The notes beneath the pieces are model-generated. The model saw nothing but the letters and a program-made list of their open reading frames with translations. It was not told the DNA's origin and searched no databases. 64,000 nt of DNA. Origin: Phycisphaerae bacterium. Its GTDB lineage: Bacteria; Planctomycetota; Phycisphaerae; Sedimentisphaerales; UBA12454. A program made the position numbers and the translations under genes. Position 1 is the stretch's first letter; every line of letters starts with the position of its first letter. The stretch lies in NCBI GenBank assembly GCA_041478555.1, contig JBGOWI010000003.1:8408-72407 (forward strand), read 5' to 3'. Below, in pieces: positions 6,159 through 42,619 of the stretch.

Positions 6159-6971
6159 TTAACGTGCCGGGAGTTTTAATTTCATACCGACAACGAGAGT
6201 ATCGGCGTCGGTAATCACGGATTTATTTAACTGGATAATTTCATCGTATCTATTGCCATTGCCGAGATATTCGGCGGCTATCTGCCAGAGACTGTCGGAT
6301 TCCTTTACAACGTATTGTCTGAACTGCTCGTTGGACGGTTGAGGGGTTTGGGGAGATGTAATTTTTGAAACCTTTTCAAAAAGGCCCGTTTTCAAAAGTG
6401 CATTTGTCTGATTTTCAAGCGGAGGTATAACCAGTTTTTGTCCGACCTGAATCTGGTCGATTGATTCGAGCTTGTCCTTGTTCGCATTATAAATTTTTTC
6501 AATGGAGGCAAGTTTGTTGCCGTTTTCGGGTCCGTATAATTTCTTTGCGATTTCCGCCAGACTGTCTCCCGGGCAGACAACATAGACCGTTGATGATTGC
6601 TGTTCTGCGGCGGGCTTTATTTCGACAAGTTCTTTTTGCACAGTTTCATTGCTGGTCGTATTTTCTTTTACAGCCTCTTCGGCAGCAGGCAGAATACCCT
6701 GATGGTGAATTTCAGCAGATGTGCTGTTCTGGTCGACTTTCGGAGTTTCTGTTACTACGGTTATGACCGGTTTGTGGCTCAGGGCAGGGGCGATGTTTCT
6801 GCTGGGTCCGACAAGAGCCGGCTGCTGCTCTTTGTAATGGCTTACATAGCCGACAGTGTCCGGAGCCTTGTTGTTTTTACTTAAAAAATCGGGCAGGCCG
6901 TTAATTACAAATGTTATAGCCACAATAAAGATAAGTGCTAAAAGTAATCCAATCTTTGCATCAGTTGTCAT
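6159..6971 (-). CDS. Membrane-anchored protein with two LysM domains
   Basis: N-terminal TM (IGLLLALIFIVAITFVI). Two LysM-like units: YVVCPGDSLAEIAKKLYG...QVGQKLVIP and YVVKESDSLWQIAAEYLG...VVGMKLKLP. Confidence 0.8.
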   Translation of the reverse strand: MTTDAKIGLLLALIFIVAITFVINGLPDFLSKNNKAPDTVGYVSHYKEQQPALVGPSRNIAPALSHKPVITVVTETPKVDQNSTSAEIHHQGILPAAEEAVKENTTSNETVQKELVEIKPAAEQQSSTVYVVCPGDSLAEIAKKLYGPENGNKLASIEKIYNANKDKLESIDQIQVGQKLVIPPLENQTNALLKTGLFEKVSKITSPQTPQPSNEQFRQYVVKESDSLWQIAAEYLGNGNRYDEIIQLNKSVITDADTLVVGMKLKLPAR

Positions 6972-6992
6972 TGACGAAACTCCTTTTTCTTT

Positions 6993-7895
6993 CTATAACT
7001 TGACAGCCATTCTTAACTTTGCACTTCTTGAACGCGGATTTTCGCGCCGCTCGCCAATCGAAGCGGTTACCGGTTTCTTTGTAGCTATCTCATAAATGCC
7101 GGCCGCTTTGTTTTGTCTGAAATTTGTTTTTACGATTCTGTCCTCAAGACTATGAAAACTGATAACCGCGATTTTTCCATTCTCTTTTAACAGATTTGGC
7201 GCTGCCGCCAGAAATTTTTCAAGATTTTTAAGTTCGGAATTTACAGCAATTCTCAGTGCCTGAAAGGTTTTCGTAGCCGGATGAATCCTGCTCTTTCGCG
7301 ATTTCGGACTGCATTTCAGGGCCCGGCATATGATGTTCACAAGTTCCGCAGTTGAGTCGATTTTCTTCTTCCCTCTGGCCTGAATAATGGAACGGGCAAT
7401 CTTCCTTGACGCCCGTTCCTGTCCCAAATTGTATATCAGGTCAGCCAATCCCTTTTCGTCCATGCTGTTGACTATATCAGCGGCTGAATACTCAAGTCTG
7501 TCATCCAGCCGCATATCGAGCTTCATATCTTGGTCAAAGCTGAGGCCTTTGCTCTCATCTGCAAGCTGAACGGAACAAACGCCGAGGTCTGCAAAAATCA
7601 AGTCAGCCTTTTCAATTCCGTTCTGCTTCAGGACTTCCGCAATGTTTGCAAAATTTTCGCGGACAAGCAGTACCTTACACGGCAAAAGAGCCAAATTCTG
7701 CCGGGCAATCGCCAGACAATTGTTGTCAATGTCAAGGCCGAGCAGGACGGCATCTTTGCCGAGAGATTTTGCAAGAATTTTGCTGTGTCCGCCGCACCCT
7801 ATTGTGGCGTCGACAACAACGGCATTTTCTTTTAGGCTTATTCCGGCAGCAAATTCAGCAAGCACAGGTGTATGTTCTGCCGGCATATTATTCAC
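6993..7895 (-). CDS. rsmH: 16S rRNA (cytosine1402-N4)-methyltransferase RsmH (MraW)
   Basis: HTPVL...DATIGCGGHS...FHSLEDRIVK...NPRSRSAKLR are canonical RsmH motifs. The gene sits in dcw context. Confidence 0.94.
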   Translation of the reverse strand: MNNMPAEHTPVLAEFAAGISLKENAVVVDATIGCGGHSKILAKSLGKDAVLLGLDIDNNCLAIARQNLALLPCKVLLVRENFANIAEVLKQNGIEKADLIFADLGVCSVQLADESKGLSFDQDMKLDMRLDDRLEYSAADIVNSMDEKGLADLIYNLGQERASRKIARSIIQARGKKKIDSTAELVNIICRALKCSPKSRKSRIHPATKTFQALRIAVNSELKNLEKFLAAAPNLLKENGKIAVISFHSLEDRIVKTNFRQNKAAGIYEIATKKPVTASIGERRENPRSRSAKLRMAVKL

Positions 7896-7939
7896 TTTTA
7901 AACATCCATAATAATTAACAGCTTAAATAATTATGCCGG

Positions 7940-8149
7940 TTAACTGACAGCGAGTTTCATCTCCTGTTCGACAAGAGCCTGCACGTAAGGTGAGAACTCG
8001 ACGTCGATAAGTGTGCGGTGCAGCTTGCGGACGTTCTCGAGTCTTTCTGCAAGGATGTTTATCGATGCGAAGGTCTGCTCGTCGGTGGTTCTGCCGCCTG
8101 TGAGACTATCACGCACAATTTCAAAGTGGTCCGGTTCGATTGTTTGCAT
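7940..8149 (-). CDS. Hypothetical 69-aa protein between mraZ and rsmH
   Basis: ATG at 8149 has an AAGGAG Shine-Dalgarno 7 nt upstream and lies 11 nt after the mraZ stop. I recognise no family. Confidence 0.5.
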   Translation of the reverse strand: MQTIEPDHFEIVRDSLTGGRTTDEQTFASINILAERLENVRKLHRTLIDVEFSPYVQALVEQEMKLAVS

Positions 8150-9032: not shown

Positions 9033-10331
9033 ATGGATTTAACAACACTTGCAAAATCGGCCAAAAAAGCAGGTATTCTGCTCTCGGCAGCAAATACCGA
9101 ACGGAAAAACACCGCACTTAAAGCTATCGCCTGGGCTTTGAAGCAGAATGCCGCAGAGATTACAAGGGCAAATGAGCAGGATATCGAACAGGCTAAAGAT
9201 GAAAAATTAGCTCTCGCCTTGCTCAAAAGGCTCAAATTCGGCGAAAATAAAATCAATGACGTATGCAGCGGCATTGAGGACCTGATAAAGCTTGATGACC
9301 CTGTCGGGAAGACGCTCTATGCAATTCAGATGGATAAAGGCCTTGAGCTTTACAAGGTTAGCTGTCCCATCGGAGTAATCGGGGTTATTTTTGAATCCCG
9401 TCCTGATGCTTTGGTGCAGATTTCAACATTGTGTCTCAAGAGCGGCAATGCCGTCATTTTGAAAGGTGGCACAGAAGCGGCAAACACCAATAGTATTCTT
9501 GCCAAAATCATACACGATTCAAGCGTAAAGGCAGGCATACCTGAAAACTGGATTCAGCTCTTGCAAACCCGTTCTGATGTCCATGCGATGCTCGCTCTGG
9601 ATAAGTTCATAGACCTGGTAATTCCAAGGGGCTCAAATCAGTTTGTCCGCTATATTATGGATAGCACTAATATACCTGTGCTCGGCCATGCAGACGGTAT
9701 CTGCCACGTATATGTTGACAACCAGGCCGATATTGATATGGCAGTCAAAATAACAGTTGATTCCAAAACCCAGTATGTCGCGGTGTGCAATGCGGCTGAG
9801 ACGCTTCTGGTTCATAAGGATATTGCCGAAAGATTTCTGCCTGAAGTTAAAAGCGCTCTTGAAGCAAAAGGCGTTGAGCTTCGCGGCTGTGAAAAAACGA
9901 GAAAAATAATAGATATAAAACCTGCCGACGAAAAGGACTGGTTAACCGAGTATCTTGCTGAAATCCTGTCGATAAGGACAGTGGACTCGCTCGACCAGGC
10001 CATAGAACATATAAATACTTACGGCTCACATCATACGGACACGATTGTTACGCAAAGCCAAACGGCTGCTGCCGATTTTTTAGAGCTTGTCGATTCGGCA
10101 AATGTGTTTCTCAACGCAAGCACCCGCTTCAGTGATGGCTACCGTTACGGCCTTGGCGCCGAAGTCGGAATAAGCACCAGCAAAATTCACGCTCGCGGCC
10201 CTGTCGGCCTTGAAGGATTGGTTATATATAAATGGAAACTTCTCGGCAGCGGGCAAATTGTCGCTGATTATAGCGGCCCGAACGCAAAACAATTTACGCA
10301 CAAAAAACTGAAAAAGGGATTTCACTTATAA
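9033..10331 (+). CDS. proA: Gamma-glutamyl phosphate reductase
   Basis: 432 aa aldehyde-dehydrogenase-fold ProA (VIFESRPDA..., GSHHTD...). Its TAATG stop/start overlaps proB. Confidence 0.93.
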   Translation: MDLTTLAKSAKKAGILLSAANTERKNTALKAIAWALKQNAAEITRANEQDIEQAKDEKLALALLKRLKFGENKINDVCSGIEDLIKLDDPVGKTLYAIQMDKGLELYKVSCPIGVIGVIFESRPDALVQISTLCLKSGNAVILKGGTEAANTNSILAKIIHDSSVKAGIPENWIQLLQTRSDVHAMLALDKFIDLVIPRGSNQFVRYIMDSTNIPVLGHADGICHVYVDNQADIDMAVKITVDSKTQYVAVCNAAETLLVHKDIAERFLPEVKSALEAKGVELRGCEKTRKIIDIKPADEKDWLTEYLAEILSIRTVDSLDQAIEHINTYGSHHTDTIVTQSQTAAADFLELVDSANVFLNASTRFSDGYRYGLGAEVGISTSKIHARGPVGLEGLVIYKWKLLGSGQIVADYSGPNAKQFTHKKLKKGFHL

Positions 10332-11592: not shown

Positions 11593-11679
11593 GCCGAAGT
11601 GGCGGAACTGGCAGACGCGCGGGACTCAAAATCCCGTCGGGCTTAAAACCCGGTGTGGGTCCGACTCCCACCTTCGGCA
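11593..11679 (+). tRNA. tRNA-Leu (anticodon CAA), long variable arm
   Basis: GCCGAAGTGGCGGAACTGGCAGACGCGCGGGACTCAAAATCCCG...GTGGGTCCGACTCCCACCTTCGGCA. The anticodon loop is CTCAAAA and there is a class II variable arm. Confidence 0.9.
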
Positions 11680-11775
11680 TTGTTTATTGAGAAATATCAT
11701 CCGCCGAAGCTTTAGCGAAGGCGGACTCCTCAATTCAAAATTAAGAATTAAAAATTCTTGCCTCTTGCTTCTGAC

Positions 11776-14700
11776 TTATGCTACAGCAACAGCTTCTTCT
11801 TCCCGCTGCGGCTCATAACTGTCAAATTTGACGCTTATCTTCTTGCTGACGCCTTTCTGCTGCATAGTGATACCCACCAGCAGATCTGCGATGCTCATAG
11901 TCCGCTTGGCGTGTGTGATTATAATAAACTGCGAGTTTTTCCTGAATTCCTGCACAATCAGATTAAATCTTTCGTTATTTGCCTCATCAAGTGCAGCATC
12001 GACCTCGTCGAGGAAGCAGAACGGCGATGGTTTGGTCTTGAAAATCGCAAACAACAGCGCAATGGCAGTCATGCTTTTTTCGCCGCCGCTTAATAAGCTT
12101 ATGCTTCTTGTCTCCTTGCCCGGCGGACGGGCCATAATCTCTATGCCGCTTTCAAGCACATCTTCAGGCTGTTCAAGAAGTATGTCCGCACGCCCGCCGC
12201 CGAACAGTTTCCTGAAAACCTCTTGGAAATTGATTCTTATCTGCTCGAAGGTCATGGCGAATTTGCCAATTGACTCTTTATTAAGCCGGCTGATTAACTG
12301 CTGAAGCTGGTTTTTGCTCTCGTTGAGGTCTTCTATCTGGCCGGTTAAAAAGTCATTTCTCTTTTCAAGCTCTTCCTGCTGCTCGATTGCATCGATATTT
12401 ACATTGCCGAGCCTTTCGATTTTGCCCCGCAAATCTGCAATTTCATCTCTCACACTGTCCCAGTTGATTTCCTCAGCTTTGTAGTTTTCATACTCGACTG
12501 TTAAATCCATCTGCAGTTCTTCTGCGACGTGCTGAACAAGGTCAGCCGATTTGACCTCAAGCTGGCTAAGTTGGAGTTTTATCTGATGAATCTGCTCATC
12601 GAGCTGGCTCTGCTCTTGCCTTTTGAGCTTTAAGGCCTCTTCGAGTTCTTTCCGCTGCCCGAGCATCTGCTCGACCTGTTCGTGCAGAGCGATACTCTGG
12701 TTATAGGTCGTTTCCTTTTGTGCAAATAGTTCTGATATTTGGGCTTCGATATTCAGAATATCTCTGTGCGACTGCTGTATCTGTTCGCTGCAGGCTGTGA
12801 TATTATTTTGTGCCGACACAAGGGCGGTTTTGGCGCCCTGAATCTGGTTTTCAAGGCTGACAGCCTGCTGTGCCGTCGCCTTTTTCTGCTCGCAGGCCTG
12901 GCCCAGAGCGACTTTCAGTTCCGTAAGCTCAACTGTGCTCTGCTGCAGCAGAGTTTTCTTTTCTGCAAGCATTTTTTCAAGCTGTTCGATTTGTTCGGTT
13001 CTCTGAACGTTGACGGCTTCGAGCTCGGCCAGCTGCTGTTTCGAGGCGTATTCGTTCTGGACGGTTTCGGAAATCTGTTTTTCGAGCTGCTGGATTTCGC
13101 CGGCAAGAACAGGCTGTTCGTCTGTAAGGCGTTTGATATTCTGCTCTATAACGTTCAGGTCGGATGTTATATTTGTTTTTTCTGTATTGGCTTCATATAC
13201 GGAAGTTCTGAAATCCTTGCAGAGTCTTTCGAGGTGTTCATTCTGCCTGACATCGTTATCGAGTTTTTCTTCGAGCCGTTTTATATTCGCCGATATATCT
13301 TCAAGTTCCTGTTTTAGCTGAGCGAGCCTGCTTTTGCGGGAAATCAGACCGACAGCTTTTCCTATCGGCCCTGTGGATATACTGCCGTCTGAATTGATTA
13401 TATCTCCTGCTGTGGTCACAAAGCTGTAGCCTTGCGCACAGAAGTGTGCCAGTTCAAGTGCCTTTTCGATTGATTCGACTATAATCGTTTTTCCAAGCAG
13501 ATTCCAGGCCAGTGGTGCATATTGACAGTCAAAACTTACAAATTCAACCGCTCTGCCGCAGGTGCCGCCTGTTTGTGAAAAGTTCTGGCTGTCGGCGAAA
13601 GGTTCCGTCCTGTCTATGCAGATGAATTTAACTCTGCCCTGCGACTGGTTTAAAATTTCTTTATCGTTTATCAGCAAATTAGTATCGCTGATAATCACCG
13701 CATCGGTTTTGCCTTCGAGTGCCGCTTCGATTGCCGCAGCATATTCCGCCTGTGCCCTGATTACATCGGCAACGATGCCTTTGATAAAGGTTTTCCGTCT
13801 TTCGGCGGCAAGATTAAGTATTTCCCTGACAGCCTTGTTGATGCCCTGTTGTTTGCTTTCCATATCGGCAAGAACTGCCGTTTCACTTTGAACCGCGCTT
13901 CTCTGCTCCCGTGCTCTTGCAAGCTGCTCATTGACTTGTGCAGCGTCCTGGTCGATGTTCTTTATCTGCTGACGCTTGTCTTCGAGTTTGGCACCAAGTT
14001 CGGCGATAACTCTGTTAATATCGCCGAGCCTCGCCTGGTTCTGTGCCTTGGCGCCGAGTAATTGCTCAAGTTGTTGTTTGCTCTGAGAGGCTTTGCCGCT
14101 CAGCCGGTCTTTCTGACCGTGAAGATTGTTGCGGTAAACCGTTATGCTCTGGATTTCATTATGAAGCTGAGCGGTGCGTCTTACGATATCGATAACCCCT
14201 GACTTTTCGTCCCCCAGTTCGGTTTCGAGTTCGCCGCAGCTTATGTTGATGCTGCGGATGTCCTGCCCAAGTTTTTCAAGCTGTGCCGATTTATCGCTGA
14301 TTGTCTTTTCAATCTGTTCGGCGCGGGTTTCACACTGTTTAAGCTGGTCTTCGAAATCCGCAACCTGTCGCTTTAACCGTTCACTCTGCTGCTGTTCCGT
14401 TGAACAGCGGCCTTGCAGCTCTTCGATTCTTTTATGCAGGAATTCTATCCGCTGCTGTTGCTGTTCGATTTTGCTTGTTATGGAAACGAGGGCATTATCG
14501 CAGCGGTTGATTTCGTTTTCCTTTTCAATGATTTCAGTAGCCAAACTGCTGACTCTGGCGTCTTTGTCTGCAACTTGGGCCGCAACTGAGGCAAACTGAC
14601 TTTGCAGGTCGTTGAGAATTTTATCTTTTTCATCTGATTCTGTTTTTATCTGATGATACTGGGCAAGTGAAAAACTGACGCGGAGTTCTTTGAGTCTCTG

Positions 14701-33125: not shown

Positions 33126-35657
33126 ATGTTTAGTAAAAAAGCAGAAATTCTGATTTTGTTTATTCTTATAATTTTTTCCGCTGCCGGTGCTGGTGCAGCC
33201 GTCGAGGCTAATGCAGTTGCCGAGGCTAATATTGTTGCCGACGTTAATACGGCTGCTAAGGTTGATACAGTTGCCAGGACTGATACGGCTGCCAGGGCCG
33301 AGGCGGCTGCCGAGATTAATACGATTGTCGGCACCGGTATGGTTGCCGGGCAGGAAGAATTGCTTTCTCCTCTGACGGCAAAAACTTTTTATGATGTCGG
33401 CTATGAGCTTTATACAGCCAAAGATGCTAATTTTCTTTCAGCGAGGCAGGCGATTATATTTTTCGATGCCGCGGTTAATCTCGACAGCAGGGCAAATTAT
33501 GTTCTGGCTGATATTATTGATATTGCATGGCAATATCCCGAAGAGAATTTTTCAGATGCCGTTAAACTGGCGCTTAATGAATATATCGACCACTCAACAG
33601 ACCTTGAAGTTGCGTCAAAGGCGGTAGGGTATCTGCTTGAAAGACTCGACAGCAGAGAGGAGCGCGAAGAGCTGCTGACGAAACTAATTTATCGGTTCCA
33701 GCAGAAAAATGTCATGTTTGCATCAGACCTCTCGGCGCAGCTTGGGCTTCTGGTGGCTGAAACTGCCGATGCTGCCGAGGCTCAAAGATATCTTGCGCGG
33801 GCTTTTTTAGCGAACAAATACAACCGTCTTGCCTTTGCCAAGCTTGCCGAGCTTGCCGAGACAGGGGGACAACCGCTGCCTGACATTGTCTATCTTCAGA
33901 ATCTCCGTTTCGCAGTAAGGGCCAACCCGCTTGATTTTGACTCTGCCTTGAGATTTGCGCAATATGTAGAAGTACTCGGACTTTATGAGCCTGCTTCGGC
34001 GGCATACCGATACTGTGTGGATTTATTCAGGTATCTTAACAAACAGAAATCTGTAGGACTGGACATTTACAGGCCGTGGATTCTTAACTGTTATAACGCC
34101 CGGCAGTACATCCAGTGTCGGCAGATACTTGAGCAGCTTCGCGACAAAGGTATCTTTGATGTACAGGTCGAAGCAATTGCTTCGGCAGCAGCTTTGCAGA
34201 GCGATGACAAACAGAATCAGAAAGCGATACTCGATAGGATAGAAGCACGTGCAGGTGAAATTCTTGCCGGCAGGCAGAAGGTCTCTGCATCGGAGCTTGA
34301 GGATTTCGCATGGTTTTTCGCTTTTTTAGTCGACGTCAATTCCGAGGAGGTTCTGACCTGGGCGACGAAGGCCTATGATGCCGAGCCGAATTCGGTCAGT
34401 GCTGCTTCGCTTTTTGCTTATGCACTTATAATAAGCGAACAGAGCGAACTTGCCGGGCCGCTGCTGGAAAAAATCGGTACCACGACACAGGCAGCGGGAC
34501 TTGCCAAGGCGATGGTTCTTATGCAAAAGGAAGATGCAAATTCAGCAGCGGACCTGCTTAAGAAGGTGGTTGATACCCTGCCGGGAAGTTTTGAGGCACA
34601 AAAGGCAAAAGCAAAACTTAAAGAGCTCGGCTCTGAATATGAACCTGTGATTGATTCCGCAGCGTTTATAACGGCACTGCAGAGTGATTTTGGGCAGACG
34701 TTTTTCAGTCAGTTTATTGAACCTGAAAAGATGGTATCGCTGGAGTTCAAGGTAAAAGGTTCTGCGTTTTCTTACGGAAGTGAAATCACAGGCAATCTTG
34801 CGATAATAAATAATTATTCGGAGCCGATGGTCGTATGCCCCGATGCGATGCTCAAAGGCAATATAAGAATCGATGCGAAGATAGCCGGCGATTTGACCGA
34901 GCAGATGCCGGCTCTTATTGTTAAAACTGTCCGTCCGTCATACGAAATCAGGCCGGGCGATGCGTTGTTTATTCCGCTGCGGCTCGATACCGGCAGGATA
35001 AAATGTATTCTTGACTGTCACCCGCAGGCGGAACTGAACCTTGAATATACGGCCTACGTTGACCCGCAGGTAACTGCGGACGGCCGGATAAGAAACGCAC
35101 TTGCAATAAAACCTGCACAGGTGATTCTAAGTCGTCGCAAACTTGATATCAGCACCCGCTATCTGCAGCAGAGGCTTGATGCGCTGAAGAAAGGACATCA
35201 GGGTCAGAAGACAAAATCCGCCCAGCTTTTTGCAGGCCTGCTTGCCGAACAGCAGAAGTTCAGACAAACCGGCCCTGCTTACAGATTTCTATATGCGGAG
35301 CCGCAGTTATTAAGTTCGGCACTTGCCAGGTGTCTGGCTGAAGATGACTGGATTTTAAAGGTGCAGACAATCGCTGCAATGTTAAGGCTGAAACTGGATT
35401 ACCGGCTGACAGAAGCAGTATCGGCGGAATTAAATAATCCCAACTGGCCTGTAAGATTAATGGCTGTTTTTGCTCTTGCCAGAACTCAGGATGAAAAGTT
35501 TAAGCCTGTTTTGAGCTGGACAGCGAAAAATGACCCGCAGCCGCAGGTTCGGAAATTGGCCGCGCTCCTTTCAGGCAAAGTTGAAACGGCCCGTGGTGAG
35601 CTTGTCGAACCCAACACCAACGATATCAATCTGCCTAATCCGCCCCCGGCGGATTGA
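33126..35657 (+). CDS. Large secreted TPR/HEAT-like repeat protein (hypothetical)
   Basis: Signal peptide, a tandem hexapeptide region, long alpha-helical repeat architecture and C-terminal HEAT-like LNNPNWPVRLMAVFALA. The ATG at 33126 is preferred over the TTG at 33120. Confidence 0.6.
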   Translation: MFSKKAEILILFILIIFSAAGAGAAVEANAVAEANIVADVNTAAKVDTVARTDTAARAEAAAEINTIVGTGMVAGQEELLSPLTAKTFYDVGYELYTAKDANFLSARQAIIFFDAAVNLDSRANYVLADIIDIAWQYPEENFSDAVKLALNEYIDHSTDLEVASKAVGYLLERLDSREEREELLTKLIYRFQQKNVMFASDLSAQLGLLVAETADAAEAQRYLARAFLANKYNRLAFAKLAELAETGGQPLPDIVYLQNLRFAVRANPLDFDSALRFAQYVEVLGLYEPASAAYRYCVDLFRYLNKQKSVGLDIYRPWILNCYNARQYIQCRQILEQLRDKGIFDVQVEAIASAAALQSDDKQNQKAILDRIEARAGEILAGRQKVSASELEDFAWFFAFLVDVNSEEVLTWATKAYDAEPNSVSAASLFAYALIISEQSELAGPLLEKIGTTTQAAGLAKAMVLMQKEDANSAADLLKKVVDTLPGSFEAQKAKAKLKELGSEYEPVIDSAAFITALQSDFGQTFFSQFIEPEKMVSLEFKVKGSAFSYGSEITGNLAIINNYSEPMVVCPDAMLKGNIRIDAKIAGDLTEQMPALIVKTVRPSYEIRPGDALFIPLRLDTGRIKCILDCHPQAELNLEYTAYVDPQVTADGRIRNALAIKPAQVILSRRKLDISTRYLQQRLDALKKGHQGQKTKSAQLFAGLLAEQQKFRQTGPAYRFLYAEPQLLSSALARCLAEDDWILKVQTIAAMLRLKLDYRLTEAVSAELNNPNWPVRLMAVFALARTQDEKFKPVLSWTAKNDPQPQVRKLAALLSGKVETARGELVEPNTNDINLPNPPPAD
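33207..33332 (+). repeat. Intragenic tandem repeat, 7 x 18 nt (hexapeptide A-[ND]-x-[AV]-A-x)
   Basis: gctaatgcagttgccgag / gctaatattgttgccgac / gttaatacggctgctaag / gttgatacagttgccagg / actgatacggctgccagg / gccgaggcggctgccgag / attaatacgattgtcggc. Confidence 0.8.
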
Positions 35658-35741
35658 TTTTCCCTGTGGCAATTTTTTAGTGCACTACACACGACACATG
35701 ACGAATTGTTGCCTTTGCTTTCGGCCCCCCCCCGTCATATT

Positions 35742-36437
35742 GTTGTGGATTGACATCAGGTCGGGATTTGTTACACTAACCGTCAGGAAAACCGTCAGCC
35801 CCAGTATGTTGTGGATTGACATCAGGTCGGGATTTGTTACACTGCTTTCCAGGCAAAGGATTCAGCTTCGCCGGTTGTGGATTGACATCAGGTCGGGATT
35901 TGTTACACTTATGCGGCCGGCAGATATCGAAACGTCCGGGTTGTGGATTGACATCAGGTCGGGATTTGTTACACTCGATAAGAGCGGAGATGCCTGCAGA
36001 AGCACGTTGTGGATTGACATCAGGTCGGGATTTGTTACACTCTTTGCCATTCCGCATATTCCGTATGATGAGTTGTGGATTGACATCAGGTCGGGATTTG
36101 TTACACTTCGGGCAAGCCGACGTTCACGGACCATGCGGTTGTGGATTGACATCAGGTCGGGATTTGTTACACTGGAAAAGTTGTCCTATAGCTATAACAT
36201 CTAGTTGTGGATTGACATCAGGTCGGGATTTGTTACACTAACATATATTTGCGCCATTAGTCTATTCCCGTTGTGGATTGACATCAGGTCGGGATTTGTT
36301 ACACTGCTCGTAATGGCCGAAGACTACGGCAAGGCGTTGTGGATTGACATCAGGTCGGGATTTGTTACACTCAGATGTTTGATATCATAAAGTGGGTCAT
36401 TGTTGTGGATTGACATCAGGTCGGGATTTGTTACACT
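35742..36437 (+). CDS. PLACEHOLDER Confidence 0.
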
Positions 36438-36468
36438 ACCTGTTCCGCAACCTGAGCAATTGTAAGGA

Positions 36469-36504
36469 CTTGTGGACCGAACAGCCTAAAATAATTCGAG
36501 CTGT
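36469..36504 (+). repeat. Possible degenerate terminal CRISPR repeat (trailer end), overlapping the 3' end of cas2
   Basis: cTTGTGGAccGA matches 9 of the first 12 repeat positions after a 31-nt spacer-length gap. The rest has diverged. Confidence 0.4.
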
Positions 36505-36815
36505 TTGGGTGCTGGAGGTGTCGGTTTTCGCATTTTTCCCCAGAAAATCTGCATTTTTTCAAACTGTTTGTCAGTGATTGTAACAAGCCGAACCTCGCCA
36601 TCCGGCGGCAAAAAAATCTGTATCCTGCGGTAATGAACATCGGCATTTTCCTCACTTGCACAGTGCCTTGCATATACTGAGTATTGTAGCATAGCAAAGC
36701 CGTCTTTTAAAAGGTTTTTTCGAAAATGCGTATAATCTTTTCGTGCCTTTTCCGTATCCGTCGGCAAATCAAACATCGCAAAAATCCACACTGCCCTGTA
36801 CCCGCTTATTATCAT
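36486..36815 (-). CDS. cas2: CRISPR-associated endoribonuclease Cas2
   Basis: 109 aa, VWIFAMFDLPTDTEKARKDYTHFRKNLLKDGFAMLQYSVYARH is the Cas2 ferredoxin-fold pattern. It is adjacent to cas1 and the array. Confidence 0.92.
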   Translation of the reverse strand: MIISGYRAVWIFAMFDLPTDTEKARKDYTHFRKNLLKDGFAMLQYSVYARHCASEENADVHYRRIQIFLPPDGEVRLVTITDKQFEKMQIFWGKMRKPTPPAPKQLELF

Positions 36816-36918: not shown

Positions 36919-37806
36919 TTAAATTTTTGGTAATTCAATTTCCTTCTGTTCTCCGCAAAAGCATCTTACAAGCGATGCCGCTGTCCGATGAAGCCCGACC
37001 ATTAGCGGCCCTTTATAATCTGCAATTTCAACCTCATCATAAAGCACCTCAAGCAGTCTTGCTTTTATCGTCTGCGTTAATTCCTCCCAGTCTCCGCCTT
37101 CAACAATTTCCTTAACTTTCGCCTCAACAAATCCTCTGAAAGGCTCGACCAAATCATCTGCAAGGCAAAACGCGTTATACCTGTTTCGATGATGAAGTCC
37201 GACAGAAGGCAATAATCCTGCGCTGCAAATCGCACGCGCCACCGCCGCCCGCATTACCATATAACCGTAATTCAATAGATTATTCGGCGGCTTCCCTTCA
37301 GCATCTCTTCTGAATTCCAAACCTTGAATATAGGCACTCCAGAATAATTTGCTTGCCCTCGCCTCGATATTAGAAGGGTCGCCGCTGCGAACCTGACTTA
37401 TCAATGCTGTTAATGCTTTGTAAGTTTGCGTTTCGTCTTTGATAAGTTTTGCCTGATGTCTGATTTTCGCGCGTACTATCTGCTGCCAGAGTTTCTTTTT
37501 GAGCGGCTCTTTTGCGTTTATCTGTTTTGCGTATCTTTCGGTTTGGATTGTATTGGCTTCTATCGGCAAAAGCATCCCGGCTGGCAAATGATTGCTGTCA
37601 CAAAGCACCACAGCCGCGCCGCATTTTAATAATTCAGTAAAAACACAGTGTGTATAATTTGTCGCTTGATTATCGACTAAAAGTACGCCAATGTCTTCAC
37701 AGGGTATTGAGCTTGTATCTTTACCGTCCTGCTTAATAACTAACTGGCCGTATTTTATTGATAGAGATGTCCTTTCCCGCGAAATCTCTATTATCTTTTT
37801 AATCAA
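36919..37806 (-). CDS. cas1: CRISPR-associated endonuclease Cas1 (type II)
   Basis: 295 aa with conserved Cas1 blocks (NLLNYGYMVMRAAVARAICSAGLLPSVGLHHRNRYNAFCLADDLVEPFR). Confidence 0.95.
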   Translation of the reverse strand: MIKKIIEISRERTSLSIKYGQLVIKQDGKDTSSIPCEDIGVLLVDNQATNYTHCVFTELLKCGAAVVLCDSNHLPAGMLLPIEANTIQTERYAKQINAKEPLKKKLWQQIVRAKIRHQAKLIKDETQTYKALTALISQVRSGDPSNIEARASKLFWSAYIQGLEFRRDAEGKPPNNLLNYGYMVMRAAVARAICSAGLLPSVGLHHRNRYNAFCLADDLVEPFRGFVEAKVKEIVEGGDWEELTQTIKARLLEVLYDEVEIADYKGPLMVGLHRTAASLVRCFCGEQKEIELPKI

Positions 37807-37808
37807 AC

Positions 37809-40800
37809 TTAATCTCTAATTAGTTCCTTAACTTCGCCAAGCGGACTTATCCACACTTTAACAGGTGGTTGCCCTTCTTCAATGCCGAGATGTTGAATAT
37901 CGGAAGGCTTTAAACCGCCTGTTTTGCTGCCCGTTTTTTTGACTTCTTCTCTCGCTTTGGCTTTTTCTGTTTCTTTGTCTCTTCCTGCATCATAGTGAGG
38001 GGTAAAGTGTATTGTGCCGGTGCCATCTATCTTAAAAACAACAAAATACCCCGGCACTTTGGTTTCGGGATGTCGCATATAAACCATCTCGCCGATTGAT
38101 AAGGACATAACAAATTTGCCATTTTGGGAATCATCACGATTAATTGCAGGCAGAGGTTTTAGCCCGCTTGATTTTGGCGGATTTACTCTTTTTGCGGCAT
38201 CAAAATTTCTAATAACCTCACCGGTCCATTTTTCTTTTTCATTTTCTCTGATTTCTATGTGATGGTTATTCTGTGGCTCGTATGCCCTAATTGCTTTTTG
38301 GTGAGGGTCATATTCCATTTTACCGGTGCTTAAATTCCACTGCTTTCGTGGAATTGTTATTACAGTTGGAGACCGCAAAAGAGTAAATTGGCGGATAGGG
38401 ACTCCGCTTTTTAGAAACAGGCCTTTTTCTTTGACAAGTTTTTTTATTTCTTTTTCGCTGAAATTGTCGGGGTCTAACCCTTCAGTTCTCAGGCATTCTC
38501 TTATTTCTTCTCTAAACCATCTATCACGAATTACACCGGATTTCCCGGGTTTTACATCCGGCAGTTTAAGCATTTCTAATCTTATAGATTTTCGTTCCCG
38601 CTTTGATGAGCAGTTTTTCAGTTTTTCCCGCAGTTCATCCCAACCTTTAAGCACTTGTAAATGGTTTGGGGTCAGTTCAATAGCAAATTTGCGTAAGGTA
38701 AATTGTTCGGTCAAATTTCCATCCTTATCAAGTATTGGGCCGTATTGTGTATCATTATGGAAAGCCCCAACTATTTTTCGGGCGGCGGGCCTGTGAGAAA
38801 CTACCAAATTTCTCCATTCATTCATAACCTGCGCACGGAAACTTTCGACATTTCCCCATGGTGGGCTTATCAGTGGTCTCTCCGCAAGTTTTTTGCCCTC
38901 TTCTTCGGCTTTCTCAAGTTTTTGGAATAGCAGCGAAATTTGTTGCACTCTATCCGGCCCTGAGAGCGCTATAGCAACAGCGTCTAAGGCGTGATGCCTA
39001 TGGTCAGAACGGTTTTTTTCAAAAGGTTCTCCCTTTTTGCTGTCTGGGAAAAGCTGCCAATCTCTGCGCAAAAGTGCTGTATATCGCCCGCTTGTTGTAA
39101 AAACTCTTTTGATTCCATCTCTTTCTCCATTATAAAGAACATCTCGAAGCCAGTTAACAACTTGTTTTGCGGCGTATGCTGCATCTGTAAGTTGCGAAGC
39201 TACGAATTCGTCTAAATCTGGCGCATCTTTATGAAGATTATCCCACTTTACTAGATTTTTTTCCTTGAGATGCCTTAACCTCTGTTCAAACTTCTGAAAC
39301 CGTTCTTCGGTGAACCACTCTTTTGGGGTTTTGTTCCCTTTCCCACGGTTACAGCCAGTATGGCAAAGTAATAAATTACTCAGAAAGCTATTTCCTCCAC
39401 GACTCTCTGGTATTATGTGGTCGATTTCAACCCCATTTCCTTCTGCCGCAGTTTTTTCGCTGATAGCGTTGATTCCGTTACCACAATATGCACATTGCTC
39501 TTTCTGCTCTCGACAAAGTAATACCCTTTTAACGGCCTTTTCCTGCTGATTTTTGGTTTTTTGTTCCAAACCAAATTCTTCCATTATTTTTCTTTTTTCT
39601 TCTTCACGCTCTCGATTTTCAGATAGTTTTTTATTTCTCACAACCGCTGATTGTCTGGCTTCTCTTACCAGTTCAACTATTACTCTGTCAGGTTTACAAC
39701 CGAATTTTCTTATATGTTCCTGGATGTGCCGCTTTACTTCATGGATTGCCTTGCGGACAACAGGATTACTTAGCATTGCCGGCGCAGGCGGTAGTAAATC
39801 AGGATGTTTTTGTTGAAATCTCCGCATTGCATGATTACCACTGCCTCCTTTGAAACTATACCGTCTTCTTTGCTCATTCGTTGCTCCATTTGTCGCATCT
39901 TCTGCGAAAAGATTTCTTGCCTCATTAACCGTAAATCCGTCACGCATATATGGAAGCAAATTTTTTATAGCTCTCCTGGAATACTCCAGCCGATCTTCTG
40001 CTTTTGGCCGTTTTGTCCACGCTTCTATAAACTTTTCAGCCTGTTTCTCATCAAAGCCCCACCATTTTTTACAGCCTTCCGCTAAATACTTTTTGTCTTT
40101 TTCAGAGGTCGGGTCAAACTTTAATATGGCTTTATTTACTGAGTCTTTTTGTGCCGATGTAAGCTTCTCCCAATTCGATTCACTAATTGCACTAGAGATT
40201 ATTTCACGATAAAACCACCATGTGTTTAATTTTCTCTTTGGGTCAGCGTCTAAACTCAACGTATAAAGGGTTTTATTTTCTCCTTTATGAAGCCCTAATG
40301 CTTTTCTTGCTGTTGCAGCGGTAACGGTCTTTTGATCTTTTAGAACCTCAAAAACCTTTGGTTTTTCCTCGTTATTCAACGGTCTCGAAACTTCACCTGG
40401 CGGAGTTATCCTTATATTGTTTAATGTCTCAAGGACAAGATAATCCTGAGCGTACATATCAGCCTTGGGGCATTTAAGGTCAGTAGGTTCCAAATCGCAC
40501 CTTCCCATAGTTCCCATATCCCAGTATGTTTTACGCTGACCAAATAATATTCCTTTATATCTCCACGTTGCATCGCTCGAATTGTCATCAAGTTTTTTTC
40601 TGACAGGGTCAGTTAACTGATTTGCAAGTTCACCATTAAAAGATTTCTGTTTTTTCCACAGAGTATCAAATTCATTCCAGAGCAGGTCTCGGTCTGCACA
40701 AAATTCATATGTGGGTTCTTTGGCAGCGTTTGTCCGATTGCGAATTGCCTGTCCCACTTTTATAACATTGCCGTTTGCGTCTTTTTTCTGAAGAGGTGTT

Positions 40801-41357
40801 TTTCTTTCTTCGTAAAGCACTGCCATCAATTCCCCAAAGGTTCTTGCATTGCGATTTTTCATTTCCTCTTTCGCATGGTCGATTGCCCCTTTGATTTTCT
40901 TTGCCTCTTTGTCTTTTGTCTCTGTATTTTTGCTGTTCTCTTGTTCCTCTTTTTCAGTATTTTCTGGTTGTTCCGGCTCCTCGTTAAATCCATACGCTCC
41001 TCGTCGTTGCACAAGGTGCAATAGAACACGACCGAATTCACGAGGCGTAAGCTCTCCGTCAAGGCCTTTTTTTCTCAAAGACCATGGGTTTAATTTCATC
41101 TCTGTATCAGTGGGCGTCCAACTCAACTCCGCTAAGAATTTTCGCATTTGCCATTTCCTTTCGGCACGGCGTTCAATGCTTCTGCGTTGGCCACGATAGG
41201 TTCGTCTTGCTTGGTTTTTAGGTGCGCCGCGTTTGTCTTCTGATTCCTCTACCCCCGCAGGAAACACACCTACGCCCATTTTTATTATTCGCTCGTCTGT
41301 GTCAACTCCTGCTGAACCGACCGAATTTGTACCAATATCTAATCCCAACAATTTCAT
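37809..41357 (-). CDS. cas9: CRISPR-associated endonuclease Cas9, 1182 aa (type II-C architecture)
   Basis: RuvC-I LGLDIGTNSVGSA, Arg-rich bridge helix RRTYRGQRRSIERRAERK, RuvC-II IVELVREA, HNH EIDHIIPESRGGNSFLSNLLLCHTGCNRGKGNKTP and RuvC-III HHALDAVAIAL are all present. AGGAG SD upstream of ATG 41357. No csn2 or cas4 in the locus. Confidence 0.95.
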   Translation of the reverse strand: MKLLGLDIGTNSVGSAGVDTDERIIKMGVGVFPAGVEESEDKRGAPKNQARRTYRGQRRSIERRAERKWQMRKFLAELSWTPTDTEMKLNPWSLRKKGLDGELTPREFGRVLLHLVQRRGAYGFNEEPEQPENTEKEEQENSKNTETKDKEAKKIKGAIDHAKEEMKNRNARTFGELMAVLYEERKTPLQKKDANGNVIKVGQAIRNRTNAAKEPTYEFCADRDLLWNEFDTLWKKQKSFNGELANQLTDPVRKKLDDNSSDATWRYKGILFGQRKTYWDMGTMGRCDLEPTDLKCPKADMYAQDYLVLETLNNIRITPPGEVSRPLNNEEKPKVFEVLKDQKTVTAATARKALGLHKGENKTLYTLSLDADPKRKLNTWWFYREIISSAISESNWEKLTSAQKDSVNKAILKFDPTSEKDKKYLAEGCKKWWGFDEKQAEKFIEAWTKRPKAEDRLEYSRRAIKNLLPYMRDGFTVNEARNLFAEDATNGATNEQRRRYSFKGGSGNHAMRRFQQKHPDLLPPAPAMLSNPVVRKAIHEVKRHIQEHIRKFGCKPDRVIVELVREARQSAVVRNKKLSENREREEEKRKIMEEFGLEQKTKNQQEKAVKRVLLCREQKEQCAYCGNGINAISEKTAAEGNGVEIDHIIPESRGGNSFLSNLLLCHTGCNRGKGNKTPKEWFTEERFQKFEQRLRHLKEKNLVKWDNLHKDAPDLDEFVASQLTDAAYAAKQVVNWLRDVLYNGERDGIKRVFTTSGRYTALLRRDWQLFPDSKKGEPFEKNRSDHRHHALDAVAIALSGPDRVQQISLLFQKLEKAEEEGKKLAERPLISPPWGNVESFRAQVMNEWRNLVVSHRPAARKIVGAFHNDTQYGPILDKDGNLTEQFTLRKFAIELTPNHLQVLKGWDELREKLKNCSSKRERKSIRLEMLKLPDVKPGKSGVIRDRWFREEIRECLRTEGLDPDNFSEKEIKKLVKEKGLFLKSGVPIRQFTLLRSPTVITIPRKQWNLSTGKMEYDPHQKAIRAYEPQNNHHIEIRENEKEKWTGEVIRNFDAAKRVNPPKSSGLKPLPAINRDDSQNGKFVMSLSIGEMVYMRHPETKVPGYFVVFKIDGTGTIHFTPHYDAGRDKETEKAKAREEVKKTGSKTGGLKPSDIQHLGIEEGQPPVKVWISPLGEVKELIRD

Positions 41358-41388: not shown

Positions 41389-41416
41389 TTGCAATATTTA
41401 TCAGAAACCCTATAAT
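41389..41416 (+). promoter_or_regulatory. Putative tracrRNA promoter (TTGCAA-16 nt-TATAAT)
   Basis: Hexamers at 41389-41394 and 41411-41416. The anti-repeat begins 8 nt after the -10 element. Confidence 0.5.
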
Positions 41417-41422
41417 GCCGCT

Positions 41423-41532
41423 TGTGTAACTAATCCCGGCTTGCGTTTTTTCACAACAAGACGAAAAATTCGCAGGCACCGCCGAAAGGCGACCGCTGTA
41501 GCCCGTGCAAACCACGGTTCTACAGCTTTTTT
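41423..41532 (+). ncRNA. Predicted tracrRNA (anti-repeat 41424-41457, internal hairpins, intrinsic terminator ending in T6 at 41527-41532)
   Basis: GTGTAACTAATCCCGGCTTGCGTTTTTTCACAAC is complementary to the CRISPR repeat (14-bp, 6-bp and 6-bp helices around an internal loop). It is followed by a cgcc-gaaa-ggcg hairpin and a gctgtag...ctacagc terminator stem. Confidence 0.75.
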
Positions 41533-41577
41533 ATATCTGCAATTTAGACACCTCATTAGAAAATGTTATTGTAATAA

Positions 41578-41605
41578 ATACCTCAAAATTTAGAGGTATT
41601 TTTTT
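41578..41605 (+). terminator. Second intrinsic terminator-like hairpin downstream of the tracrRNA
   Basis: Stem atacctc / gaggtat followed by a T-run of at least 7 (41599-41605). Confidence 0.4.
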
Positions 41606-42318
41606 CTCCACTGTGGTCTGGCCGCAGGAATTTTACCAAAGGAACCTCGAATTGTCCACATAACAAATTTTGCGCAAGTCGTAGTTGCAAAAAACGCTCG
41701 AAATTCGTAAAAACTCCTCATTTCTTGGTAATTTTAGGGTAAAAAAACGAAAAAAACGAAAAAATTGAAAATTTCCACCCTCATTTTTAGCGTAATTTTA
41801 AAAACTTGCGCAAATGTCAAAAAAACTTGCGCAAATTTTCGAGAAAATCGTTCATAACTCCTTTATTTTCGTGGTAGTTTTTATCATAAGTCTTTATTTT
41901 ATGTAGTCGATTTTGCCTGCCCTGAGCGCCTGTGGTGAGCGTAGTCGAACCATGTCGAATGGGCCATAAGTCCTTATTTTTTATTAACTGTTTGTGTTGT
42001 AAATCCTTATTTCTTGTCGTCGATTTTTTGAAAATTTTGAATTTTGGTAATTCGAATTTGTTTCCACCGTAAGGTGTCCTGTGGAGGATTTCGATATTCG
42101 GATTTCGGATTTCGGATCTATCTTCTTTACGTCCTGAATATGTAATTTTGACTTTAAACCTTTGTTAATATAGGGTTATGAATAAGCTAAATTTATTTTT
42201 TATTTGGATTTTGCCGAATTTTTTGTTGTCAAATTGGCTTGACTTTTGTATTATTTCCGCCTCAAATTGTGTAATTTGTAAAACGTTGCGTTTATGTTGT
42301 TTTTGAAAGGGATTTTTT

Positions 42319-42492
42319 ATGCCGGCAAAAGTAAATGAAGACAAATGCACCGGTTGTGAGGCGTGTATTGATGCCTGCCCGGCTGAAGCGATAAAAATGG
42401 TTGATGGCAAGGCGGTAGTAGATGTCGACACTTGCGTTGACTGTGGTGTTTGTGTTGACGAGTGCCCTGTTGAAGCGATAGAGATGGAGTAA
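42319..42492 (+). CDS. 2x[4Fe-4S] ferredoxin, 57 aa (below the ORF-track length cut-off)
   Basis: MPAKVNEDKCTGCEACIDACPAEAIKMVDGKAVVDVDTCVDCGVCVDECPVEAIEME has two CxxCxxCxxxCP clusters. TTGTCA-17-TATTAT lies at 42226-42254. Confidence 0.8.
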   Translation: MPAKVNEDKCTGCEACIDACPAEAIKMVDGKAVVDVDTCVDCGVCVDECPVEAIEME

Positions 42493-42544: not shown

Positions 42545-42619
42545 GGCCCCATCGTCTAGGCCGGTCCAGGACACCGGGTTTTCAACCCGGCAACAGGGGT
42601 TCGAATCCCCTTGGGGCTA
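42545..42619 (+). tRNA. tRNA-Glu (anticodon UUC)
   Basis: GGCCCCATCGTCTAGGCCGGTCCAGGACACCGGGTTTTCAACCCGGCAACAGGGGTTCGAATCCCCTTGGGGCTA forms a cloverleaf with anticodon loop TTTTCAA. Confidence 0.9.

Follow-up and report, generated by a model that had tools for sequence, protein, structure and literature searches.

All 11 repeats of the CRISPR array in the window, by which we mean the whole 64,000-nucleotide stretch of DNA that was analysed, carry a motif that resembles a complete sigma70-type promoter, and the cores of its two elements, TTG in the -35 region and TAnnnT in the -10 region, are among the most conserved parts of the repeats in related type II-C loci. This conservation, together with the finding that the TT of the first element is routinely unpaired in the predicted crRNA:tracrRNA duplex, suggests that the repeat is constrained both as DNA (a promoter) and as RNA (the Cas9 handle). 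The repeat would thus provide a simple and testable case of dual coding, and the family-wide finding is more interesting than the window array itself. Judging from the motif and from characterised systems, the repeat-embedded promoters are probably the main source of the crRNA 5' ends. The mechanism is already known, because repeat-embedded crRNA promoters are established in the II-C systems of Neisseria and Campylobacter, and the window locus is an ordinary II-C array that shows no departure from known II-C biology.

The CRISPR-Cas locus and the strand of its crRNAs

In the list of open reading frames, cas9, cas1, and cas2 are contiguous, and all three are encoded on the - strand. The cas9 gene (37809–41357, 1182 aa, type II-C) matches the profile TIGR01865 with E = 7e-156, the cas1 gene (36919–37806, 295 aa) matches TIGR03639, the type II NMENI subtype, with 258.6 bits, and the cas2 gene (36486–36815, 109 aa) matches TIGR01573. 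The Pfam domains HNH, RuvC_III, and Cas9_a were detected on a protein identical to the window Cas9 (P0001), and the residues of the catalytic regions are invariant in an alignment of 18 sequences. The nearest Cas9 proteins, with 57–63% identity, are annotated as originating from MAGs of Sedimentisphaerales, Phycisphaerae, and other Planctomycetota, and the best PDB matches, which cover part of the protein, are II-C Cas9 proteins, those of Neisseria among them (E from about 1e-40 to 1e-46). The genome is probably that of a member of the Planctomycetota (Phycisphaerae). Neither csn2 nor cas4 was found at the window locus or among the syntenic neighbours of the related locus L096. L096 and L097 have the same neighbours as the window locus: genes for a HEAT-repeat protein and MurJ flank one side, and genes for a ferredoxin and M16 peptidases the other. 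The profile matches to cas9, the NMENI cas1, and cas2 bear out the assignment to type II-C that had been made in a preliminary description of this DNA. Judged from its sequence, the locus is almost certainly an intact type II-C CRISPR-Cas9 system with crRNAs on the + strand.

A tracrRNA of about 110 nt is predicted at 41423–41532 on the + strand, located 5' of cas9 and divergent from it. The predicted RNA consists of a 34-nt anti-repeat (41424–41457), identified by wobble-aware local alignment as in the other loci, followed by two small hairpins, a terminator stem (41496–41525), and a T-run (41527–41532). The promoter scan placed a promoter at 41389–41416 (+ strand), 7 bases before the anti-repeat, with the hexamers TTGCAA and TATAAT separated by 16 nt, which is the same spacing as that of the repeat motif. 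In the tracrRNA genes of 14 relatives, a TTGACA-like box and TAnnnT, 16–17 nt apart, likewise precede the anti-repeat by about 7 nt. These tracrRNA promoter motifs indirectly suggest that sigma70-type promoters operate in these organisms.

Rfam searches of the window detected no tracrRNA or CRISPR family at E <= 1; the matches were one tRNA and two weak ones, the latter well below the gathering scores. The tRNA gene lies near the CRISPR-Cas locus, at 42545–42619 on the + strand (RF00005, 60.5 bits). An AT-rich intergenic stretch of some 780 nt (41540–42320) separates the tracrRNA from a small ferredoxin gene, and by eye it contains short direct repeats: CTTGCGCAAAT twice, ATAAGTC(T/C)TTATTTT twice, and TTCGGA three times in tandem. 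The scan also marked a promoter-like site for cas9 at 41658–41630 on the - strand, and the 5' UTR of cas9 would therefore be antisense to the tracrRNA.

The predicted duplex between the anti-repeat and the + strand reading of the repeat has an energy of -42.5 kcal/mol; positions 1–8, 11–13, 16–27, and 29–35 of the repeat are paired, and positions 9–10, 14–15, and 28 are unpaired. Since the anti-repeat on the + strand pairs with the + reading of the repeat, the crRNAs are assigned to the + strand, convergent with the cas operon. Of 56 related loci, 55 have their repeats in this same orientation, opposite to cas9. The preliminary description had placed the crRNAs on this strand by three arguments, of which the promoter motifs and the tracrRNA anti-repeat hold, and the third, a degenerate repeat at the end near 36469, was wrong. 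The repeat matches that stretch at 16/36 positions at best, and does so off-register, at a different offset; 1.1% of window positions reach this level, and the stretch aligns with the conserved II-C leaders of other loci. The reasoning from a degenerate trailer to the strand also fails because spacers in II-C systems are acquired at the last-transcribed repeat, at the cas-proximal end (PMC12080349, PMC12477760).

The leader itself (36438–36485, + strand) is cas2-proximal and follows the last repeat when the array is read in the crRNA sense, filling the 48 nt between that repeat and the cas2 stop codon. It aligns with the flank of the L082 array and with the flanks of more distant loci; an equivalent flank was also seen in L081–L094, L014, L043, L063, and others. 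Its conserved positions A1, C9, A12, and A13 occur in 63%, 69%, 84%, and 90%, respectively, of 51 distinct leader flanks. An imperfect palindrome in the window leader gives a hairpin with z = -1.4, and a strong hairpin (z < -2) was predicted in 15 of the 51 flanks. For the hairpin in the 14 close loci, double-sided changes exceeded those in all 500 shuffles, and 69.5% of the cells paired in register, compared to at most 46.6% with the register slid. The hairpin is not a canonical terminator, because no T-run follows it on either strand; it may act as a signal for integration or as an insulator.

On the other side of the array, the scan showed a terminator-like hairpin with a T-rich tail (35636–35656, + strand) at the end of an upstream gene of 845 aa, about 85 nt before repeat 1, and no promoter-like site between this hairpin and repeat 1. 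A study of II-C arrays describes the Rho-independent terminators in front of them as a shield against read-in transcription (PMC12080349), and the hairpin would insulate the window array from upstream transcription in the same way. L082 has a stronger terminator, AGCCCCCAGTTTCACTGGGGG followed by a T-run, directly before a conserved 36-nt distal flank. In the window, this distal flank occupies 35706–35741 (+ strand), adjoins repeat 1, and reads TTGTTGCCTTTGCTTTCGGC, a C run, and GTCATATT. The C run has 8–9 residues in the two loci, and the sequence farther out differs between them. The distal flank was not accepted as an old degenerate repeat, since a hand count gave 15/36 matches and there is no intervening spacer before repeat 1.

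A protospacer search, meant as an independent source for the PAM side and the strand, compared the 3'-terminal 22 nt of spacers 8, 9, and 10 with viral contigs and gave no exact hit, and none of the spacers matched the window or the collected loci at 23/30 or better. No spacer is shared between the window and the L082/L097 arrays. In the L082/L097 arrays (12936–13960 of the locus), spacers 4 and 5 represent a single target in two versions with 5 differences, which suggests repeated acquisition against a diversifying invader.

The promoter motif in the window repeats and in related arrays

The array (35742–36437, + strand in the crRNA sense) is composed of 11 exact copies of the 36-nt repeat GTTGTGGATTGACATCAGGTCGGGATTTGTTACACT, which start at 35742, 35808, and so on up to 36402, and of ten 30-nt spacers, giving a period of 66 nt. 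Within the repeat, TTGACA occupies positions 9–14, TG positions 28–29, and TACACT positions 31–36. The gap between the two hexamers is 16 nt, and the final base of the -10 hexamer is the final base of the repeat, at the repeat/spacer junction. In repeat 1, these elements correspond to 35750–35755, 35769–35770, and 35772–35777, respectively, and the motif spanning 35750–35777 recurs at 66-nt steps up to 36410–36437. Positions 28–36, TGTTACACT, are present in 11 of the 11 repeats and direct the -10 box towards the spacer. Compared with the sigma70 consensus, the motif matches at 6/6 positions of the -35 hexamer and at 4/6 positions of the -10 hexamer, with the TG of an extended -10 element and a 16-bp spacer; the optimal sigma70 hexamer spacing is 17.

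The promoter scan returned a site in each of the 11 repeats, all on the + strand and each with 10/12 hexamer matches and the TG, and no site on the - strand of the array. Both the scan and the direct reading thus reproduce the motif given in the preliminary description, namely TTGACA, 16 nt, and TGnTACACT ending at the junction in 11 identical + strand repeats. The scan gave a total of 30 sites, compared to 13.4 expected. This excess is not evidence by itself, because the 11 identical copies amount to one independent sequence. When the repeat was shuffled 2,000,000 times, the composite of TTGACA, 16–18 nt, TG, and TAnnnT appeared with a frequency of 1.85e-5. A stronger argument against a chance resemblance than either the shuffles or the scan comes from the comparison of the family.

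For this comparison, arrays were extracted from 97 loci encoding Cas9 relatives, which yielded 51 distinct 36-nt repeats in the crRNA sense; the counts of TG and of the two hexamers were made on 54 repeats, the orientation was compared in 56 loci, and the duplexes were predicted for 45 loci. The most conserved positions among the 51 distinct repeats are the 5' GTTG, T31/A32/A34/T36, and T9/T10/G11. In the -10 region, T31 and A32 are conserved in 100%, A34 in 96%, and T36 in 98% of the repeats, positions 33 and 35 vary, and TAnnnT is found at positions 31–36 in 50 of the 51. The first, second, and last positions are those that matter most in a -10 hexamer. The pattern of T31/A32/A34/T36 is the signature of a -10 hexamer, and fits the repeat-embedded promoters established for II-C systems. 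In the -35 region, the conservation is 92% for T9, 100% for T10, and 98% for G11, with TTG at positions 9–11 in 46 of the 51 repeats. The TTG lies at a fixed distance of 19 nt before the TA, which is the sigma70 geometry with a 16-nt spacer.

The further elements of the window motif are less widespread. TTGAC at positions 9–13 is present in 10 of the 51 distinct repeats, and the full TTGACA in 4, i.e., those of the window, its orthologue L082, L063, and L071. TG at positions 28–29 is present in 11 of 54 repeats, and TTGACA and TG occur together in the window array only. The two-hexamer criterion of the scan (a TTGACA-like -35 and a TATAAT-like -10 hexamer separated by 16–18 bp) was passed by 14 of the 54 related repeats. 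The -35 element is not peculiar to the window array, since its TTG core is conserved throughout the family. The earlier proposal that the window motif is more complete than those of known systems is therefore sustained for the combination of TTGACA and TG, and was overstated in treating the -35 element as a special addition. As far as the sequences tell, the window array has the most complete promoter motif in the sample, which amounts to a minor variation and not to a new mechanism. In four related repeats, CTGCTC replaces TTG and TG is absent as well, so a strong promoter is not universally required. A trade-off between the quality of the -35 element and the presence of TG across the repeats, which would be anticipated if both acted in the promoter, was not significant (Fisher p = 0.43 and 0.14), with a direction that fits.

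Two of the related loci have unusual arrays. In L084, the array (11865–13802) is located directly downstream of cas9 in the same orientation, with no cas1 or cas2 within reach. Its repeat keeps the TTG and has a -10 hexamer of TACACC, which has lost T36, and its first repeat has an internal deletion of 11 nt. Read-through transcription may replace the repeat promoters in this locus. L087 contains three arrays with one and the same repeat, at 6219–8097, 9235–10257, and 11642–12863, and genes for HTH and DDE_3 (transposase-like) proteins lie between the first two, which suggests that an array was split by an insertion element.

In the proposed mechanism, RNA polymerase with the housekeeping sigma factor would bind inside every repeat, at the -35 hexamer TTGACA, the 16-bp spacer, and the extended -10 element TGnTACACT. 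Transcription of the + strand would start about 6–8 nt into the following spacer, i.e., at 35783–35785 for the first crRNA, as estimated from the usual distance between a -10 box and the start site, and at the equivalent position in every other spacer. The products would be nested transcripts that run towards cas2, have a triphosphate at the 5' end, and contain guides of about 22–25 nt. The downstream repeat of each transcript would pair with the + strand tracrRNA (41423–41532), Cas9 would bind the duplex, and RNase III may shorten the repeat within its 3' part, where the -10 box lies. The repeat would thereby have two roles: as DNA it would be the promoter, and as RNA its positions 1 to about 24, including UUGACA, would be the Cas9 handle. 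Spacers would be added at the cas2-proximal leader, and the oldest spacer would therefore be transcribed first. The promoter activity, the start sites, the independence of RNase III, and the contribution of the -35 and TG elements are inferred by analogy to Neisseria and Campylobacter. If the repeats are strong two-element promoters, each spacer would be expressed independently of its position in the array and of RNase III, and the start site would set the length of the guide, which would be useful for the adaptation of the system as a tool and for guide prediction.

Constraints on the TTG and on T28

In the predicted duplexes of 45 loci, T9 and T10 pair with the tracrRNA in 13% and 11% of the loci, respectively, whereas all of the other positions pair in 58–100%. 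Base pairing does not explain the conservation of T9 and T10, because they are so rarely paired. The UU of the crRNA at positions 9–10 lies opposite a conserved UUU(U) of the tracrRNA and forms a conserved internal loop, the tracrRNA side of which is a run of 3–5 U that is conserved across diverse loci. Since no positions other than T9 and T10 are routinely left unpaired, their conservation could reflect the recognition of the RNA by Cas9 instead of a promoter. Two explanations for T9 and T10 remain, a -35 element in the DNA and a sequence-specific reading of the guide internal loop by Cas9, and the two are compatible.

We consider that the chances are about even that the -35 hexamer itself would contribute to transcription. 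More tentatively, and with the balance against it, the TTG may be a general and previously undescribed DNA-level element of the repeat-embedded promoters in a large II-C clade that includes Planctomycetota, Acidobacteriota, Proteobacteria, and others. If so, this would explain why the invariant U9 and U10 sit unpaired in the crRNA:tracrRNA duplex, and the internal loop of the guide would be shaped in part by the need of the repeat DNA to stay a two-element promoter. Such a promoter would be at its strongest in the window array, which combines TTGACA and TG and has lost a base pair with the tracrRNA.

The lost base pair involves T28. The repeat of the orthologous loci L082 and L097, GTTGTGAATTGACATCAGGTCGGGATTAGTTACACT, has the same -35 hexamer TTGACA and has A28 instead of T28. 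L082 shares 96% Cas9 identity and the same gene neighbours with the window, and the loci L082 and L097 are identical. The other ten close relatives, too, all carry A28, and this base pairs with a U of the tracrRNA. T28 is a derived change, because the window tracrRNA keeps the U that pairs with A28 in the relatives. In the window, T28 (35769, and then every 66 nt) faces position 41431 of the tracrRNA in a U-U mismatch that costs 4.6 kcal/mol, and it creates the TG. The duplex energy is -42.5 kcal/mol in the window compared to -48.2 kcal/mol in L082, and T28 is one of three changes that weaken the window duplex. The sequence comparison is suggestive of selection of T28 for promoter strength, as a single event.

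These data also bear on other accounts of the array. As in type II-A, one long precursor could be transcribed from a promoter outside the array and be processed by RNase III together with the tracrRNA, and the motifs in the repeats would then be inactive. The -10 hexamer, which matches the consensus at only 4/6 positions, would agree with inactive motifs, but the terminator-like hairpin about 85 nt upstream and the lack of any promoter-like site from there up to repeat 1 speak against such a precursor. Moreover, the first transcribed repeat is the one farthest from the cas genes, and this position, like the conserved TAnnnT, agrees with the II-C pattern, for which Neisseria and Campylobacter provide experimental precedents (PMC3656092, PMC5965381). 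A long precursor is thus quite improbable. Repeat promoters, by comparison, are supported by the motif in 11 of 11 repeats, on the + strand only, and by the hairpin upstream of the array. A more serious possibility, though still an unlikely one, is that the likeness to a promoter is largely a by-product of RNA constraints, with UUG at positions 9–11 kept for Cas9 and the 3' end kept for pairing with the tracrRNA, so that the -35 element adds little or nothing to a transcription that depends at most on the -10 box alone, as in Neisseria. A function at the RNA level is indicated by the U-run of the tracrRNA, which is conserved rather than evolving to pair, and positions 9–14 lie within the part of the repeat that is kept in the mature crRNA. 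L084, a single case, keeps the TTG even though its -10 hexamer has lost T36, and the TG and the -35 quality show no trade-off. However, covarying changes would be permitted if pairing alone acted on the repeat, and T31, A32, and T36 are nevertheless fixed, with variation at positions 33 and 35; the fixed 19 nt from TTG to TA follow the sigma70 geometry, and the same organisms have TTGACA -35 boxes at their tracrRNA genes. In addition, roles in the RNA and in the DNA are not mutually exclusive.

The greater completeness of the window motif could have arisen without selection: ACA at positions 12–14 and T28 may be neutral drift along the continuum of the family instead of a response to selection for a stronger promoter. 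Partial versions of the motif are spread through the family (TTGAC in 10/51, TTGACA in 4/51, and TG in 11/54 repeats), the orthologue L082 has TTGACA with A28, and the full combination, which is confined to the window array, is a single event. Drift explains T28 as well as selection does, because T28 is one of three duplex-weakening changes in the lineage. Nevertheless, T28 has been fixed in all 11 repeats despite its cost of 4.6 kcal/mol in pairing, and it makes exactly the dinucleotide that strengthens a -10 box. We regard drift as having slightly less than an even chance of being correct.

Comparison with known repeat-embedded promoters

Promoters embedded in the repeats have been documented for type II-C systems (PMC3656092, PMC5965381, PMC7038990, PMC12080349, PMC12477760). 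In Neisseria meningitidis, an extended -10 promoter lies within each repeat, as PMC5965381 and PMC12477760 relate from Zhang et al. 2013, and transcription starts at the 6th nucleotide of the spacer (PMC12477760, legend of Extended Data Fig. 4). The window locus resembles that of N. meningitidis in having only cas9, cas1, and cas2, a tracrRNA adjoining cas9, 30-nt spacers, and a 36-nt repeat with GTTGT at its 5' end and TGnTACAnT at its 3' end. The array is also read opposite to the cas operon and towards the leader, with the predicted start 6–7 nt into the spacers. The Neisseria repeat, which we take to be GTTGTAGCTCCCTTTCTCATTTCGCAGTGCTACAAT, has no TTG at positions 9–11, so that its promoter would presumably consist of the extended -10 element only. 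In contrast, the window repeat adds a consensus -35 hexamer, its host is represented by a Planctomycetota MAG and is not a proteobacterium, and its Cas9 is only distantly related to that of Neisseria.

The minimal II-C array of Campylobacter jejuni also has promoters inside its repeats (Dugar et al. 2013, PMC3656092). As in C. jejuni, the -10 box of the window is located in the 3' part of the repeat, and start sites in the spacers and 3' ends generated by the tracrRNA and RNase III are predicted here. The promoters of C. jejuni generally have no -35 box, according to reference 31 as quoted in PMC3656092, whereas the window repeat has one, and the middle part of the repeat is unrelated. Repeat promoters have also been inferred for Clostridium cellulolyticum (PMC7038990).

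For the II-C repeats of Flavobacterium columnare and F. psychrophilum, a TTG element at -33 has been proposed (PMC8092290, PMC10309648). The likeness to the window lies in a TTG located about 33–35 bp before the spacer and in an array that is read towards the variable, leader end. The Flavobacterium promoter is of the Bacteroidetes type, with TTG at -33 and TAnnTTTG at -7, and was proposed from a handful of reads, whereas both hexamers of the window follow the standard sigma70 consensus. A limited search of the literature found no description of TTGACA, or of a sigma70 -35 hexamer, in II-C repeats.

The layout of the window array also agrees with that described by Feussner et al. 2025 (PMC12080349) in their study of the limits on 'extraneous crRNA', with a terminator upstream of the first transcribed repeat and acquisition at the last one. 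The two differ in that the first, 'extra' repeat of the window is free of mutations, and the paper does not discuss a -35 element. Overall, the window array is an uncharacterised instance of the known II-C arrays with promoters in their repeats.
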